DNA from: Podarcis liolepis
Lineage: Eukaryota
DNA length: 64,000 nucleotides
Strand: one strand, 5' to 3'
Assembly (NCBI GenBank): GCA_965112155.1
Contig: OZ218107.1
Position numbers and translations under genes: made by a program. Below, piece by piece: positions 2,941-64,000 of the stretch (the stretch's first letter is position 1; every line of letters starts with the position of its first letter). The notes below the pieces were generated by a model. That model did not search any database. It was not told the DNA's origin and was given only the letters and a program-made list of their open reading frames with translations.

Positions 2941-3167
2941 CAATGGTACCTTGGTTGTTGAACTTAATCCATTCCAGGAGTCCGTTCGACTCCCAGAGCG
3001 GTTCAAAAACCAAGGCATGGCTTCCGATGGGCTGCAGGAGCTTCCCGCACTCAATTGGAAGCTGCGTCGGACGTTCAGCTTCCAAAAAAGGTTCACAAAC
3101 TGGGTTTGTGGCGTCCAGGAGCCGATTTGTTTGACAACAAAGGTTTTCGACTACCAAGGTACCACTG
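2941..3167. mobile_element. Tc1/mariner (Tigger/pogo-like) MITE
   Basis: TIRs CAATGGTACCTTGG / CCAAGGTACCACTG with TA target-site duplication. Confidence 0.85.
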
Positions 3168-50880: not shown

Positions 50881-52917
50881 AGGTCAGGTTTAGTGGGTTG
50901 GATCCAGAATATCAGTTCTGTAATCAGAAGGGCTCCTTACTTTTTTTGGAAGTGCCTCAAATTCAGCAGAGTCCTCAGACCACCTTGTGTTACTATAAAT
51001 TTGAGAATATGTCTCCACACCCCCACCCAACCACATAAATGCAGAAAATATAAATTAACTTTAACGTAACTCAGACTCAGATTACTGAGTTGGTAATCAG
51101 ATTACAGAAAAAATTACATGAGATGGATCTAAGAGCAGTCTGAGAATTCTGGTCTGAACTAACTAATGTTGAGTTTTGGTGAATAACTGAATGATAATTA
51201 CAACATAATTCTAAATGGTTTTTTTTTAATTTAAAAAACCACTGTTATCTAGCTCAGTTAGATTTTATTATTATTTCATGCTTTCTTTGCCAGGAAAATA
51301 AAGCATTTGCTTATAAAGCAGTATACACAGAAATGTTTTAAATAAATCTGTGTTTTGTATACACTGTTTTGCTGTATTTGTATTTTCAGTTTGCTTTCAA
51401 GTGAGACTTGAAAAGGAAAGTAATAGTTTATTATTTCTGCATTTTATTTCAATTCATGATTCCAACCTTGTTCATTAAAGCTGAAGTGAAAATCTGTGTC
51501 TGAAGGACCTTTGTTGACAGAGAAACTGGCCTCCAGCACAAAATTCAATAAACATTGATTACCCAGTCTAATGCAGTTTATTGTTGATTTCTTTTCTTTC
51601 AAAAAGTAATTTACTCTTGCCAAAACATTTTTATGCATGAGGCCATCATCTAGAAATTAATTAACATTTTAGAGTGCAATAACCTAATATGAATGTCAAG
51701 TGAAACATCATTTTCTTTGACCAAAACATGGCGGTGAGTTAGCATATGAGGGAAAGTGATCTCTTTTTATAATAAAGTGCTATCATAGCATTTTCAGGAT
51801 TTCAAAGAGTAAAGTTGACATCCAGTCATTTCTAGTGCTGTAAGTGATAATTTCTGAAATAGATTTTATTTACATGGATTTATTTAATCTTCCCATTGTG
51901 AGCGCTTGAGGAATATAAATCTCTGCTCAGCAAACCGTATTCAAGCCAGTGTTGCCACCAGAACAGCATGATAACAATTACTTCAATCCTGTGTGAAACA
52001 GGGTCAACTTCTTCACAAACATCCATATTTCCTGGGATGATATTACACAGGTGGGCAGTCAGCATTTCTCTGTGAGAACTAGAAGAAAACTTGCAATATA
52101 TTTTTTCTGAGATTCTAACAATAGAAAAGAACAAAGCCTTGAAACACACTGATAATCAACAAAGCAGTCACGAGGGTCAGAAAATGAAGTTCAGCCACCT
52201 GCTCTTTATTTCAAGGCAACAATAAAAACCACTTATGAAGCATCAAAAGCCTTACATTTTTACCATACCATCAGGCTAGCATACTTCTAGTTTGATGTGG
52301 GTATAGGATGTTCTTGATCCTTATTTTGAAAGGAAAGCGTTCACCACTTCAATGCACACCTTCTGTATTTATTAATATATAATGGAATATACTGTCAGTA
52401 CCATGGGCTTATATGGGGCTAGGCAGCATTTCATAAGTAGGAAAAAAAGACAGTTCCCAGTTCCCAAGCAGCTTACAATGTAAATTTTGACTGAGAAGCA
52501 GCAGAAAACAGAGAGGGCTGGGCTGCAGTGAGCTCAGGATGCTACTGGTGCCTGAATTAGCCTGGGCTAGTCCTGCCGTTAGGGACGCGGGTGGCGCTGT
52601 GGGTTAAACCACTGAGCCTAGGACTTGCCGATCAGAAGGTCGGCAGTTCGAATCCCCGCAACGGGGTGAGCTCCCGTTGCTCGGTCCTTGCTCCTGCCGA
52701 CCTAGCAGTTCGAAAGCATGTCAAAGGGCAAGTAGATAAATAGGTACCACTCTGGCGGGAAGGTAAACGGCGTTTCCGTGCGCTGCTCAGGTTTGCCAGA
52801 AGCGGCTTAGTCATGCTGGCCACATGACCCGGAAGCTGTACGCCGGCTCCCTCAGCCAATAAAGCGAGATGAGCGCCGCAACCCCAGAGTCGGCCACGAC
52901 TGGACCTAATGGTCAGG

Positions 52918-53655
52918 CAGTGGCGTAGCGTGGGTTGTCAGCACCCGGGGCAAGGCAAGTAATTTGCACCCCCTAACCCGTGGAGCGCCCCCCCAGATGT
53001 TGTGCCCGGTGTGGGGGCGCAAGCGAGGCCCGCCTCCCGCGAAACTTCCAAGAGGTCGCCCTACGAAGCCCCTCCGGAACGCAGCCTGGAGACTAGAGCA
53101 ACGAACGACGACCCCACCGGCCCAGGCAGGCGGCGGCTTCGACGGTGCTTTTCCCGCCCAGCGATGCCGACGCACCTTGAGGCTCCCCTGGGTGGCCACG
53201 TGGCCCTTGCCCGGCGTGCTCCGCCGGCGGCGGCGGGCTACCGCTGCCTCCCGCTCCTCCGCCGCCCGCCTCCGCCTCGTCGGCGTCGTCGTCCTCCTCC
53301 ACGTCGACTACCACGTCTTCCTCTTCGTCCTCCTCCTCCAGGGCGGCCGCCGAGCCCTCCCGCCAGGGCGGCCTCCACGAGTTGTCGAGCTTGGGCAACG
53401 GCTGCGCGGCTGACGGCGAGGCGCTAAGGCGCCGGCTCCCCAGGCTGGAGCGCTTGGCCAGGCGCCGCGCTTGCATGGCTGGCCGCGCGCAGCTCGCCTC
53501 AGCGCGGCGCGTGGGAAACAGAAGCAGTGGCGGAGACGACGACCCCCACCCCAACCAAGCCTCGATTGCTTGTCCCTTCCCTCTGGACTCGCGCCCCCCC
53601 AAATGTTGCGCCCGGTGCGGCCGGCACCCCTGGCACCCCCCACGCTACGCCACTG
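52918..53655. mobile_element. Non-autonomous hAT-type DNA transposon (738 bp) carrying captured host DNA (Pack-TIR-like)
   Basis: Perfect 17-bp TIRs CAGTGGCGTAGCGTGGG / CCCACGCTACGCCACTG. Perfect 8-bp TSD TGGTCAGG at 52910-52917 and 53656-53663. No transposase ORF. Confidence 0.93.
53176..53476 (-). pseudogene. ZNF704: Transposon-captured copy of a first coding exon resembling ZNF704 (long N-terminal isoform), with a probable +1 frameshift
   Basis: Kozak GCCAGCCATGC, then MQARRLAKRSSLGSRR...SWRPP...EEEDEEEDVVVDVEEDDD. After a 1-nt shift it reads AEER...PGKG...GSLK followed by the donor AAG|GTGCGT. This matches my recall of mouse Zfp704 (MQARRLAKRPSLGSRR...GSWRPP...EEEDEEVVVEVVDGDEDDEDAEER...PKGPARGAVK). 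Length is 301 nt = 100 codons + 1. Confidence 0.72.
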
Positions 53656-54791
53656 TGGTCAGGGGTCCCTTTACCTTTTAGTCCTGCCGTTGAGATGGGG
53701 GGGTGCAGCCAGCACCAGTGGGCTTTGTTTTAGGTAGAAAAAATATTTGGGGTAGAGCATGTGGATCACATTACATCTCTACTAGTTTTCTGTTCTCACC
53801 AAATTACACACTCTTAATAAATTGAACAAGACCACTGTGGGCTGCAGGAATTCCCTGTGATTGGAGCACTTAATCAAGAAACCAGTTTTATTAACATACG
53901 CAAGAACAAGCCGAGTTGCTGTGAAAGAAATATAAAAGCCTTCTTATTAATTTTTTTGCAGTAAAAATTGTGCTAGAATTTATAGCTCTCGTAGCTGCAG
54001 AAGATCCATGACTCGACTCAGTAATTCCTTAAGTCCGAAATCAATATTTCGCTCCTGTTTCTTTTCCAAGTGGGGCAGGGATTTGGACATTCATTCAGCA
54101 GAACTGAAGCTTGAAAGACAGTTGACTGTGTATTTATATATGAGGTTTATCTGGGAGCTAACTCTGGGGTCAGCTCTCCCTGTTGCCTTTATGAGTTGTT
54201 ATAACAAAAGTGAAGAAGTATCAGTACATTCACTGAAACCTATACCAACATAAAGTTAAGGGGAACTCAAGCAGCATCCCATATAGATATACCTTCCAAC
54301 ATCTTTCAACAGAAAATTGAGATGTAGTTCAGCTGGCTTGCTGGCTGGCTCACACGGGAACATGGTGCCAAAATACGCGTGAGTCAGCTGGTTGCCTCTC
54401 CAGTCGCAGCCCCTACCTAGTAGCTGTTCAGAAAACCTTAAACCCCATTAACTGAAAAAATCGGTTGGTGGGGGTGCACAGTGGGGGTGCCACTCATGTG
54501 ACAGAATTTGGGGCAGTGTCCTGGCATACGGTTATTTCCTATTCATTTCAAATGTAGCTCAACATGGCAGTATATTGATCAAAAAGCCACAGTTCCATAT
54601 CACATCGGATGCTGCAGTGTAAAACAGATATTAGAAATTGAAACAGAAGCACTAGCATTATGAGAGGTAAAACTAAGATAGTAAACCTTCTGTCTGAACG
54701 CAGCCATAGAAATATACATGCAGCCTGGCTTCTTACTAATGAAATGCATTTTAAGTTTACAGGCCCTGTTTAATCCAGACAGCTACTACTT

Positions 54792-56340: not shown

Positions 56341-56997
56341 TTTTATTATTTGTACCCCGCCTATCTGACTGGGTTATATCAGCCACCCTGAGCGGCTTCC
56401 AGCAAAATATAAAAACACCATAAAACATTAAAAACTTTCCTATACAGGGCTGCCTTCAGATGTCTTCTAAAAGTCATATAGTTATTTATCTGTTTGATAT
56501 CTGATGAGGAACATTCTACAAGGTGGGCACCGCTACTGAGAAGGCCCTCAGCCTGGTTCCTTGTAACTTTACTTCTAGAGCTAGATCTCAGTGTCTGGAC
56601 TGAATGATGGGAGTAGGCATGCTTCTTCAGGTATATACAGCTGAAGCTGTTTAGGACTGTAAAGTTCAGCACCAACACTTCAAATACTGGAATCAGATCT
56701 TTTAGAATCAGTGTTATATGGTTCCAGCAGCCACTCCCAGAAACCATTCTAGCTGCCACATTCTGGATTTGTTGTAGTTTCCAAGTCACCCTCAAAGGTA
56801 GCCCCATGTAGAGCGCACTGTAGTAGTCCAAGCGGGAAATAACCAGGGCATGCTCCATTTTGGCAAAACTAGGCAAGTAGGGTCTCAACTGGTGTGCCAG
56901 ATGGAGCTGGTAGACAGCTGCCCTGGACACTGTGCCTCCATGGACAGCTGTGAGTCCAAAATGGCTCCCAAGCTGTGCACCTGGTCCTTTAGGGCAG
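56341..56997 (-). mobile_element. L2-clade LINE 3' fragment
   Basis: Translation YQLHLAHQLRPYL...HALVISRLDY.SALYMGLPL....KLQQIQNVAARMV...FRRHLKAALY. The 3' UTR matches the 23441 copy. Confidence 0.9.
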
Positions 56998-57224
56998 TTT
57001 GTATAAACTGGCAAAGGTGTGCCAAGATATAGTTTTAGAACATGGCCCGTAATACCATGCAAACTAGTGCCTTTGAATGTGTGCAAAATAACCCCCCTAA
57101 TCAAGCAGCTTCAACCTGTCTCTGAAGAGGTTGGATTAAAGTAACACTTTCAATTTCAAGACAGACTTGAGCTCTGGCACCTAATATTGCACAAACTTAG
57201 CCTTGGATTGTTTATCTAATTCAA

Positions 57225-58514: not shown

Positions 58515-59252
58515 AAGGGAGGAGGAATGAAAGAACCTTTAAATGAGGGTGAAAGAGGAGAGCACAAAATATGGTCTGAAGCTCAATATCAAAAAAATGA
58601 AGATCATGGCAACTGGTCCCATCACCTCCTGGCAAATAGAAGGGGAGGAAATGGAGGCAGTGAGAGATTTTCTTGGGCTCCATGATCACTGCAGATAGTG
58701 ACAGCAGCCACAAAATTAAAAGATGCCTGCTTCTTGGGAGAAAAGCAATGACAAACCTAGACAGCATCCTAAAAAGCAGAGACATCACCTTACCGACAAA
58801 GGTCCGTATAGTTAAAGCTATGGTTTTCCCAGTAGTGATGTATGGAAGTGAGAGCTGGACCATAAAGAAAGCTGATCGCCGAAGAATGGATGCTTTTGAA
58901 TTATGGTGCTGGAGGAGACTCTTGAGAGTCCCATGGACTGCAAGAAGATCAAACCTATCCATTCTGAAGGAAATCAGCCCTGAGTGCTCACTGGAAGGAC
59001 AGATCCTGAAGCTGAGGCTCCAATACTTTGGCCACCTCATGAGAAGAAAAGACTCCCTGGAAAAGACCCTGATGTTGGGAAAGATGGAGGGCACAAGGAG
59101 AAGGGGACAACAGAGGATGATATGGCTGGACAATGTTCGCGAAGCTAACAGCATGAGTTTGGCCAAACTGTGGGAGGCAGTGGAAGACAGGAGTGCCTGG
59201 CGTGCTCTGGTCCATGGGGTTACGAAGAGTCGGACACGACTAAACAACAAAC
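58515..59252 (+). mobile_element. Bov-B (RTE) LINE 3' fragment, the longest in the window (RT C-terminal region)
   Basis: Open frame GSMITADSDSSHKIKRCLLLGRKAMTNLDSILKSRDITLPTKVRIVKAMVFPVVMYGSESWTIKKA...HGVTKSRTRL, characteristic of Bov-B, with a CAA-type tail. Confidence 0.95.
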
Positions 59253-60979
59253 AAAGAGAAGAGGGGGTCTCTCTTCTGTAGCCCAAAAATGTGAGATTCT
59301 TTGCCCTTGTAGATGCTTTGGGAAGAGGGTTTCCTCAATTTTAGGAAAAGGATAGTAGGAGCCTGACCACTTCATGACAATACTTTAAATAGTTGAAAAT
59401 GCAGAAGGAGAGAAAGGTGCAGGGAAGAGTTACTGTAACTACAAAAGGGAGCAGTTTTCACCAGCAGGCTACAATGAAAATTCTCCCTGTATGACTTCGA
59501 GATTGTAATCTGTAGTGGCAGCAGATCCCAGTCTTCTCAGGCCTGCGTATCGCTCTGCCCTGCCACTTTTAGAAGTGTTGAAAGCTGGATAGTAGCAAGG
59601 GAAAATGTTAAGGAAGATGTATTCAGGAACTGAGCTAAAATGCAGAACAGTTCTTTTCAGAACAGTTTAAAACATGTGATTACAAAGGGGCACAGCCAAA
59701 TAATGCTAATATATTTTGAGACCACAATGCATTGGGAATAGCATTCACCTCAAGTGCTCGCTAAACATTTTATTCATAGCAGGTTGTGTAACGTTCTAAT
59801 GGCAATCAGTGAAAAACTAAGCATTTCTTAAGCCAACCACGTTGTAGTTGCATCATGAAGGACTGTTTGTGGTCATTTCTAAAACAAATGATATATATAT
59901 ATATATATGCACAATATTTGTATGTGCAGTTAAAGAAAGGAACCGGGGGGAACGGCTGTGGGAGAAGCGATTAGGTACACATGAAATGCTTCCCTTAATT
60001 TAAATATTGGAAATGGCTTAGAGAAATCAACCCAGATGGATCCTACTACAGTAACAAGACTTATTTTCTGTAGCCTTTGGAAAGGATTTTGGGCTCTGAA
60101 TACATAGCAGCTGCCAAAGCCTCAATTTGTCCATGCCTGGAAGAGTTGAATCTCTGCTTCCACAGCCCCTTTCCTGCCTTCAGCAACAATGACTGCCTGC
60201 AATTGTCATACCTGACCTATTTTCCAGTAATTTCCCCAAAGGTAACAAACATCTTGCCCAACATCTTTGCCTATGGAAGGAACAACTACACAGATCAGAC
60301 CTCTTTTTTAAGGACAAGTATGTATAGGCCAGTGCACATGTGCACACACCAATTATATTGGGTCAGAGAATTCAAAATTCTTAATAGCATTCTTTTTCTC
60401 TGCATGTTTAGAATGATTTATTTTTAAATCATACCATGATATTGAGTGATTCTATTAACACATGAACTAAAATACTTTAAATAGTCATCTTTCTTGAAAG
60501 AGTAGAACGTTATGCTTATCATCAATTTATTTCCTTTTAAAATTTATATTTCCATCCAATTTTCAGAAAAAATCAATGTGACTTTCAACCCCAAACACAA
60601 CAACAGTAACAAAATATATTGTTACAGGCCACCCTAATCTCCAAGTGGTGAAAGATTTCAGGGGTCTTGGCGCTTAACCAGGATTTGTGTTTTCTCTGGA
60701 AGTGAGGCACAGTGGAGACTGGTGTCTTCATGATATATGGTTTTATTTACACATATATGCAACCTTGAGTCTACAGTGGAGGAATTTCCAGCACTCTCAT
60801 CTTAAGAGGGACTAGTTTCCTACAGAAGCACAGCATTGGATTCAAAGGTTGCCAAACAGCAAACTCTGTGTCTCTTTTCCAGTTTATCCCAGCTAGCCCA
60901 CCAAAACTTCTGCCAGGTCCACTTCTCCCCAGTTTTTCAAACCTCTTGCAAGATGCCACAATATTCCTTCAGCCTATAT

Positions 60980-61543: not shown

Positions 61544-63201
61544 GCTTAAGCACTTTCTTTCCCTGCCCACACACAGCTGGAGGAGGAGCCCTTCCCCTCC
61601 TTGCCTGGCAGCCTTGGCCCCCCCCATCATTTCCTTGATAGCCTATCACTGGCCTTTGTCCCCTGCTAATGGCTCATCTTAGTGGTTATGCCAAGTTGGC
61701 CTGGGTTGTTAGCATAGCTAACAGTTTTCAACTTTTGGCACAATTTAATAAAACTTTGATTAATTCTAACTTTTCCTAAATCCAAGAGTTATGGGGTTTG
61801 CCCCACCACCCACAATATCATGATCTCCCTTCAGATCATGAAAGCCAAAATCCAAAACAGCTATCAGAACACCTCCCTTGGCAAGGCATTCCACACATGG
61901 AAGCCACGAAATAAAATGTCCCAGGCCTCTTCACCACCAGATGTGATTCATGGAGTTGAGGGATCTAGAACAAAACATCATCTGAGGATTGCAACATGCA
62001 GGGAAGAACATACAGAAGAATGCATTCAAATAACATATTACAAACAGCAGTTTGAAAACAGCAACAGCCCAGAAACGCTGAAAGCCCAACACTAATTGCT
62101 GTTAATCGTCATCTGCATCCCACAGTCAATTAGCTCAGGGTTACTATAGGCGCTGACAGAAGAAATGAACCTTTCACCATAATGTTCTAATAGTGCAGCT
62201 GTAATTTTGCAGTTGTTTGGATATCCTTGATGGTTAACTCAGCCTTTCTATTTATGAAATTTTGAAGTAGATTCCTGTCCTAGTGAAGTACTTCTGAAAG
62301 CAAAGGGATTTGTTAATTGGCTGGCAATAATTGCTTGGAGAAGGAAAGTAGTATTTGAAGAGTTTGAAAGAGTACTTAGAGTAGCTAGATGGACTGGTTT
62401 GGTTTGGTTACTAGTTAAGAACTGAGAATGTGGTTTGAGTTGTAATTTGGAGCCAAGATTTTCAAGGATCAAGAGAGAAATTGTTCAGTAAATGTACACC
62501 ATTGCTATTGAAATTTAATAGTTTACTTTCAAAGTGTTGGACTAATGGGAATGAAGTGCCAAACACTTCCACATCTGAAAGCTACCACCATGGAAAACTA
62601 AAAAGGTTTATTTGTAGTTCTGTAGGGAAAAGAAGCAATCCAGAGCAAACTAATAGGATAAATGTGGGGGGCCTCCCAGCTAATGGGGTGGTGCTTGAAA
62701 ACAACTTTGGCAAAATACCAGCATTTGATTTTCATTTTAACCTGAAAAAGGATCTTCTGAAAACATAGTAAAGTAGTACACACAAATGCACATAATAGTA
62801 TTCAGTTCTGAGAGCAAAGTTCTTAATGTGCTGAACTCAAAGGATTGGGATTATGTAGTTTCTTATCTAAGAAAAGTAAATGAACTTCTTGATCAATACA
62901 TATATAATTAACTCAGAGATGGTGCTAGACTGGAAAATTATCTACGTCGCACCTAGGCATAAGGCAGCAATTGAAAATAACTTGGGTAACTATAATCCTG
63001 TTGGTTTAATGCAATTGTATGTTATTGAAATCTGATCATTAAAGCTATAAAAGTCGAATCTAATGTAGTCGATGAGTTCAGCAAAAGTAGTTCAGCCCAA
63101 TATAATGTAATTGTTTGAGATCATGACCAGGAGTCAACAAAACACCATGTTCTTTCTGTGATTGTGGTTTTTGTTATTGTTATGGGGGGGGAGCCTATAT
63201 A

Positions 63202-64000
63202 CCGTATTTTTCGCCCCATAAGACGCACTTTTTCCCCTCCAAAAATGAAGGGGAAATGTGCCTGCGTCTTATGGGGCGAATGCAGGCTTTCGCTGAAGCC
63301 TGGAGAGCGAGGGGGGTCGGTGCGTACCGACCCCTCTCGCTCTCCAGGCTTCAGGAAGCTCTGCGCAACCCTCGGGAGACCGGCTCGAGGGTTGCGCAGA
63401 GCTGCCTGCAATCCCGGGACCAGCGCAGCTCTGCGCGGCCACCGGGAGCCGGGGGAGAAGCTCCGCCCCGCTCCCGGTGGCCGCGCAGAGCTGCGTGCGG
63501 TCCTGGGACCAGCGCAGCTCTGCCCGGCCACCGGGAGCCGGGGGAGAAGCTCCGCCCCACTCCCGGTGGCCGCGCAGAGCTGCGTGCGGTCCTGGGACCA
63601 GCGCAGCTCTGCCCGGCCACCGGGAGCCGGGGGAGAAGCTCCGCCCCACTCCCGGTGGCCGCGCAGAGCTGCCTGCCGTCGCGGGACCAGCGCAGCTCTG
63701 CCCGGCCACCGGGAGCCGGGGGAGAAGCTCCGCCCCGCTCCCGGTGGCCCTGCAGAGCTGCGTGCGGTCCTGGGACCAGCGCAGCTCTGCCCGGCCACCG
63801 GGAGCCGGGGGAGAAGCTCCGCCCCGCTCCCGGTGGCCCTGCAGAGCTGCGTGCGGTCCTGGGACCAGCGCAGCTCTGCGCCGCCATCCCGAGCGGGGCG
63901 CTAAGTCCCGCCCCGCTCGGGATGGCGGCACAGAGCTGCCTGCCGTCGCGGGACGGCAGGCAGGTCTACGCCGCCATCCCGAGCGGGGCGCTAAGTCCCG
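63202..64000 (+). mobile_element. Tc1/mariner (Tc2-group) non-autonomous element running off the window edge
   Basis: TA|CCGTATTTTTCGCCCCATAAGACGCAC terminus, the same family as 48690-49154, followed by a CpG-rich interior. Confidence 0.8.
63416..63878. repeat. Tandem array of 89-bp GC-rich palindromic units (5 full copies + partial)
   Basis: GGGACCAGCGCAGCTCTG recurs at 63416, 63505, 63594, 63683, 63772 and 63861 (period exactly 89). Confidence 0.95.

Follow-up and report, generated by a model that had tools for sequence, protein, structure and literature searches.

How DNA transposons acquire distant host sequence is an open question in the field, and most models rest on end products and on donors that carry no transposon. 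A 738-bp element in the 64,000-nucleotide stretch of Podarcis liolepis contig OZ218107.1 analyzed here (the window) poses the question anew, in that a gene-like cargo lies between two direct repeats of transposon sequence. An earlier note on this DNA took these repeats as a possible mark of capture, made when the element re-copied part of its own end by template switching during gap repair. We find that they are two right-arm copies from two different family members and a by-product of the composite history of the element, not a special capture signal; template switching is retained as the best explanation of the capture, but the repeats did not arise by re-copying of the element's own end when ZNF704 was captured.

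The layout of the element is given in Table 1. It sits in a SINE that we take to be a Sauria SINE, with contig depth of ∼1e7 compared to ∼30 in the flanks. Transposase coding is absent, all 738 bp being assigned to MITE arms, ZNF704, or the stub. An 8-bp TSD together with short TIRs is a hint of the hAT superfamily, and by these forms the family is probably non-autonomous and hAT-like. TSDs are exact in 29 of 31 elements checked (one has one mismatch and one is nested), and the left arm carries a 22- to 23-bp subterminal unit in one to five copies across family members; the MITE remnant in the window is without one 23- to 24-bp subterminal unit.

Table 1. Features of the 738-bp element and its insertion site (positions within the window)
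Feature	Position	Strand	Remark
Host SINE's left TSD, 13 bp	52568-52580	+	Right copy 53679-53691; 100% identical
Very high-copy SINE, 5' part, target of element insertion	52581-52917	+	Tail resumes 53656-53678
Element's left 8-bp TSD TGGTCAGG	52910-52917	+	
Transposon element	52918-53655		738 bp; bounded by TIR and TSD; near 3' end of high-copy SINE
Left TIR, 17 bp, perfect	52918-52934	+	
Remnant of complete MITE, the left part of the 1.41-kb ancestor	52918-53014	+	
5' repeat, first 30 bp of inner MITE's right arm, severed by ∼640-bp deletion	52985-53014	+	
Microhomology GTGG, 4 bp, at A-to-C deletion	53011-53014	+	Common to 10 C-type copies
ZNF704 intron 1 start	53011-53175	-	Splice donor GT at 53175-53174
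ZNF704 coding exon 1 from ATG (53476)	53176-53476	-	
ZNF704 5' UTR portion	53477-53533	-	Ends in CAG/CGG triplet tract
Stub of older cargo, 57 bp	53531-53587	+	Second donor L097/L108 (C16:24.976 Mb)
Outer right arm of pack lineage	53588-53655	+	Opens with 3' repeat (53591-53620)
Right TIR	53639-53655	+	Closes outer right arm
Element's right 8-bp TSD TGGTCAGG	53656-53663	+	

The repeats themselves, at 52985-53011 and 53591-53617, agree over 27 bp with two mismatches as originally described, and extend to 30 bp at 90%. A chance origin is excluded; when the element was dinucleotide-shuffled 100 times, the closest 27-bp direct repeats had 6 to 10 mismatches compared to the two observed, and the 64-kb window holds no further match to the repeat, with shuffles expecting 0.00. 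The proposal that they delimit the cargo holds on the 5' side only. There the repeat adjoins ZNF704 intron sequence with an overlap of GTGG (53011-53014), but toward the 3' repeat the ZNF704 homology gives out at 53527-53533, ∼60 bp short of it, and 57 bp of an unrelated locus plus 3 bp intervene. Two candidate signals at these borders were rejected: the 12 bp beside the 5' repeat are not a templated MITE motif but ancestral host sequence lost by the donor (the host side of GTGG has this 12-bp insertion at L107:4626 in 4/4 runs), and a TIR-like CAGTGGCGGAG at 53525 straddles the junction of ZNF704 and stub and is not a second element end.

The cargo is a piece of a host gene. On its minus strand the element carries ZNF704 coding exon 1 from the ATG to the splice donor, flanked by the beginning of the intron and some of the 5' UTR; the exon is most similar at the protein level to lacertid lizard ZNF704 (E 3e-42), a Pfam search of the exon gave no family, and an Rfam search gave no match. 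The donor lies at G000:C8:30.15 Mb (L014), with 93% identity over 509 bp; of 504 aligned bases, 22 are different in the window copy. Intron 1 and the splice donor are retained, which points to capture at the DNA level. A 5-bp deletion near the end of exon 1 shifts the frame in the window copy, and the exon is in frame and phase in 6 of the 13 A and C copies described next.

A search with the element returned 10 full copies of its own type (C, 738 to 769 bp), three copies of 1.41 kb (A; L011-L013), and many of ∼0.95 to 1.0 kb (B), and the A and C copies each have their own, distinct 8-bp TSD. Type A consists of a complete MITE of 154 to 156 bp, 1.13 kb of contiguous ZNF704 intron 1/exon 1 DNA joined flush to the right TIR of that inner MITE, the stub, and a 66-bp right arm. 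Type C is A without positions 122 to 762 (A 1-122 joined to A 762), with microhomology GTGG at the joint, and in type B ∼160 bp of other DNA take the place of A 538-1123. The window element is thus a deletion derivative of the 1.41-kb composite A, and its 5' repeat is what the deletion, which came after capture, left of the right arm of the inner MITE; in the ancestor, ZNF704 homology runs ∼605 bp past the 5' repeat junction, at odds with the repeats as marks of capture. In B (L017:795-1786, element positions 534-700) the ∼160 bp and a (GA)n tract, apparently from a third donor, replace part of the ZNF704 cargo.

The 3' repeat has a separate and older history. The stub occurs 90 times, comprising 55 ZNF704-type copies (two of these typed by BLAST pattern only), 34 D-type copies, and one donor. 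D elements (509 to 1143 bp) carry DNA of a second donor, from a GC-rich region at C16:24.976 Mb (L097), in place of ZNF704. The inner right end is kept in 33 of the 34 D packs, so that both repeats were already there around DNA other than ZNF704, and the 3' repeat is therefore older than the ZNF704 capture. This end is intact in A, B, D, and G (a sister family, below), and its loss in C came later. The donor-2 cargo also gives signs of a second route, by trimming, since F elements (714 bp) share the derived cargo deletions of E elements but have a different MITE at an inner cargo position, and D copies have several start positions within the cargo. In three E-type packs (L109, L111, and L112) what is presumably part of a Tc1/mariner-type-like MITE, ending in TA, lies between the inner hAT MITE and the donor-2 DNA. 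Some 350 bp past the donor-2 breakpoint (L108, reverse 3077-3094) there is an ATG with a GTGAGT splice-donor-like site four codons after it.

Empty relatives are abundant. At least 11,343 left ends of the family are present in 1.574 Gb, or one per 139 kb, and the first 30 on C1 comprise 25 empty MITEs and five longer elements without an inner end; the repeat motif occurs once in each of the 25, confirming that the repeats are transposon subterminal sequence. An empty parental MITE of about 130 bp with a single motif had been predicted, and such elements exist. The left haplotype of the window gave 80 hits, and the 27 fetched, off known ZNF704 packs, are 14 empty MITEs, nine family G elements, two truncated B elements, one donor, and one without a matched TSD. 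The 14 free MITEs are 128 to 156 bp long (L213 is 132 bp), with one motif and their own TSDs, and all have a right arm of the inner type.

A further prediction, that cargo could be lost by recombination between the repeats, found no support. Such loss should leave an empty element with the pack's right arm, and none was found among the 14 free MITEs, 30 second-motif hits (of 67; L192 is ambiguous, with a 9-bp deletion), or 40 pack-arm elements, the empties having been sought by motif and not with the joined empty element as query; cargo loss by this means is thus unsupported. Contig joints across the repeats were discounted as evidence for the window locus, as they derive from empty MITEs elsewhere. 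The pack-type right arm has 1,525 matches, and 40 elements sampled in order along C1 all have cargo and are 348 to 2,449 bp long, with a median cargo GC of 0.65 compared to 0.49 upstream, although host origin is demonstrated for four cargos only and other cargos include repeat fragments. Twenty-two of the 40 begin with a whole MITE and, like 33 of the 34 D packs, have two repeats around DNA unrelated to ZNF704, which again argues against the repeats as a capture mark. Donors of the L132 and L130 cargos were not found among the 25 of 40 loci scored for each, in a search crowded by pack copies and a repeat.

How the composite arose is most visible in the sister family G (nine copies seen, ∼1,530 bp). 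At its donor L209 (C14:57 kb) the MITE is still resident and bears variants private to G, and its left TSD, AGTGCCAC, is identical to the first 8 bases of the G cargo. In G, 925 bp of the L209 flank are copied and then give way to right-hand sequence of an older, L124-type pack, with ∼4 bp shared at the switch; beyond the switch, L209 continues as host DNA over the 800 bp examined. L122 switches into the same older pack as G, at AGAC, and A switches into D at about CGG (53531-53533), with ∼3 bp of microhomology, or perhaps 2 to 3 bp, since the triplet tract around it is diverged. Switches into older packs thus show ∼3 to 4 bp of microhomology in all three families examined (ZNF704, G, and L122), unlike the start of the cargo, which is flush at the inner TIR. 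At their switch points the donors have no arm and run on as host DNA.

A resident MITE is seen at one of the three donors. At the L122 donor junction there is neither a resident MITE nor a footprint. For ZNF704, the MITE-cargo junction of the packs is marked by TAGCACAG, and the 451 bp beyond it are present at the donor only (14/14 candidates scored); no MITE or footprint was found at the donor junction in this genome or in bridging contigs from 4/4 other runs, in which rare alleles may be dropped. A family MITE does sit in the present ZNF704 donor, at a distance of 321 bp from the junction; it was considered as the source of A and rejected, its haplotype being different. We note that the ZNF704 and L122 donors, MITE-free at their junctions, each have a family MITE nearby, against the background density given above: one lies within the captured ZNF704 interval (L014, reverse 1100-1243) and has a damaged left TIR and a 29-bp adjacent deletion, and the other (L259:2456-2602) is inverted, 346 bp beyond the L122 switch point.

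We consider it probable that capture proceeded by read-through of a MITE resident at the donor into its flank, followed by a switch of template, at microhomology, to an older pack. The older lineage D, as its copies show, held donor-2 DNA beside its right arm. A MITE in ZNF704 intron 1 would then have been entered by repair or replication through the 60- to 90-bp left arm, which is homologous to every family member; its right TIR and 1.13 kb of flank through exon 1 would have been copied, and annealing at ∼3 bp to the right part of D would have given the 1.41-kb composite A. As the distinct 8-bp TSDs of its copies show, A moved as a unit with its inner right end bypassed. The 640-bp deletion at GTGG, evident in the comparison of A and C, took away most of the intron along with the inner TIR and so produced subfamily C and the apparent direct repeats; a C copy then inserted into the SINE at the window locus. 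Capture would recur in the same manner with new donors, the stub of the previous cargo staying beside the right arm each time, and the layout that recurs is a whole MITE, flank flush at the TIR, microhomology, an older-cargo stub, and a right arm.

The same structure could arise by neighboring insertion, as in the Pack-CACTA model, if an older pack landed in direct orientation at ∼1 kb from a MITE already resident there and lost its left part by aberrant excision or deletion, leaving the MITE's left end and the pack's right end to mobilize the DNA between them. We regard this as unlikely but deserving serious attention. Its end product is the same, since the TIR-cargo junction would be flush and a MITE would be resident at the donor, as is seen for G; at one left end per 139 kb such neighbors are expected by chance, and composite mobilization after a MITE lands in a pack is indicated by the relation of F to E and the several D starts. 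However, the donors examined hold no pack remnant (10 kb around ZNF704 and the second donor; 2 to 3 kb for G and L122), and deletion has spared the inner right end. Two direct neighboring insertions are seen at none of four donors in this assembly, although the source allele of the hybrid could be lost. Neighboring insertion should also leave intermediates in which the inner pack is whole. Of the 249 TSD-bounded elements fetched, 137 show an inner right end within their first 200 bp, and the three with an inner left end are all nested insertions, so that no intermediate composed of MITE, host DNA, and whole pack is seen; these elements were gathered by motifs favoring left-side replacement, and the polarity may be a sampling effect. 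The two partners are of different lineages, which argues against a local hop of one element. End products are unable to separate template switching from neighboring insertion with later deletion.

It is also conceivable, although we think it improbable, that a D-type pack was first gap-filled with ZNF704 DNA and that a MITE later inserted in the cargo became the new left end, with the longer precursor lost. This accounts for the MITE-free ZNF704 donor junction, and the trimming route indicated for the donor-2 cargo lends it a precedent; yet there is no precursor, the sequence beyond the junction being found at the donor only, the starting base is identical in all 40 A and B copies examined, and family G is unexplained. 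The gap repair proposed in the earlier note, in which one empty MITE copied ZNF704 DNA and then its own 27-bp end again, appears highly improbable. The repeats are real and an empty 132-bp MITE exists, but the two repeats represent different arm haplotypes, the 3' repeat predates the ZNF704 capture, the 5' repeat was made by a later deletion, and the foreign 57-bp stub intervenes.

The element fits the description of a Pack-TIR by Tan et al. 2021, which asks for 100 to 5000 bp of host, non-TE sequence between TIRs and a recognizable parental copy; it has such host sequence (509 bp, 93% to the ZNF704 locus), DNA-level capture, and multiple copies with distinct TSDs. As in multicopy Pack-TIRs of animals such as Pack-hAT-N8_XT and in the FoSTeST model, non-autonomous hAT ends surround a GC-rich 5' gene fragment copied as DNA, with the donor on another chromosome, distinct TSDs, and breakpoint microhomology (PMC8277862). 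In FoSTeST as described there, however, the cargo replaces the interior of one element (PMC8277862), whereas the left of the lizard composite is a whole element plus flank and its right is a second, older pack; the lizard cargo, unlike that of the FoSTeST cases presented, is replaced serially, and single lizard cargos reach 9 to >40 copies. The cargo thus does not lie inside a single element with an unlinked donor, and the G donor holds the source MITE. Pack-CACTA neighboring insertion (Catoni et al. 2019) likewise gives a hybrid with ends from two parents around DNA beside the insertion (PMC6379663; PMC13317346), but in that model, as outlined, both inner ends are deleted and two donor insertions are needed (PMC6379663), whereas the lizard packs keep the inner right end and no second insertion was found at the lizard donors. 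P-element end bypass, or 3' transduction, resembles the movement with flank beyond the right TIR; there a chance host sequence serves as the new end (PMC8277862), and here the new end is a true family arm plus a foreign stub, which is absent from the donor.

Rice Pack-MULEs are comparable in number, with hundreds to thousands of elements, and in GC-rich cargo of several loci in one (PMC5861414; PMC8277862), and differ from the lizard family, with its hAT-like short TIRs, 8-bp TSDs, vertebrate host, and internal complete MITE. Maize Ac/fAc Composite Insertions (Zhang et al. 2014) also have hAT termini flanking copied host DNA, a 3- to 4-bp microhomology joint, and a whole element plus a single end (PMC4270019). 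According to that account they are built from two reversed ends at one locus, span ∼14 to 24 kb, and have both flanks copied (PMC4270019), whereas the lizard halves are from unlinked loci and span ∼0.3 to 1.6 kb. No lizard or squamate precedent was found in the literature searched; the family may be catalogued in Repbase or Dfam. Its composite architecture departs from that of the Pack-TIRs compared here, and its intermediates are unusually complete.

Tan et al. 2021 reported 370 Pack-TIRs, including four multicopy cases, in 100 animal reference genomes with strict filters, a survey that by the authors' own statement may miss TE-linked donors (PMC8277862). The lizard family suggests that TIR elements of a vertebrate can shuffle gene fragments on a scale far beyond those four cases in 100 animal genomes, with the caution that for this reason the survey counts are not directly comparable with ours. 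The family retains empty parents, full composites, deletion derivatives, older stubs, and one donor with its source MITE, and the capture mechanism is therefore testable with haplotype and population data. More tentatively, the >11,000 MITE copies may serve as homology landing pads, such that a broken pack can invade any MITE, read into its flank, swap cargo, and leave stub records. Lacertids could then possess a system of Pack-MULE scale that has dispersed GC-rich gene starts, on the order of a thousand copies, some of which retain an exon intact from ATG to splice donor and able to act as a new first exon; this is possible, and we put it forward as speculation.

In public contigs, ZNF704 cargo depth is raised in organisms B, C, and D and flat in organism E (one contig), with one run each, and the ZNF704 capture thus likely took place after the divergence of organism E. 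The window insertion is present in run X1, and contigs of X2, X3, and X7 reach no further than the edge of the element, which hints weakly at an empty site in these runs.

The window C copy (52910-52917) and the A copy L011 (736-743) lie at the same base of two SINE copies, both with TSD TGGTCAGG (two such loci among the loci fetched). These SINEs have different TSDs of their own and are only 88% alike, making a target hot spot likelier than conversion. The window copy as founder of C, or as converted from L011, is likewise unsupported by the tree, which is unresolved. Three packs (L004:1487-2408, L022:666-1786, and L127:1672-2576) are inserted in other members of the family, within the TIR or the right arm, which suggests self-targeting. 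There are also two young composite subfamilies, one of at least 24 copies of ∼1.1 kb with 98 to 100% identity (L260-L284) and one of at least nine copies of ∼1.59 kb with 99 to 100% identity (L285-L295). Elsewhere in the window, open reading frames at 56379-57110 and 58664-59281 are presumably related to the 3' ends of LINE reverse transcriptases (L2, RTE/Bov-B), and a GC-rich tandem repeat at 63119-63965 has long repetitive open reading frames on both strands.
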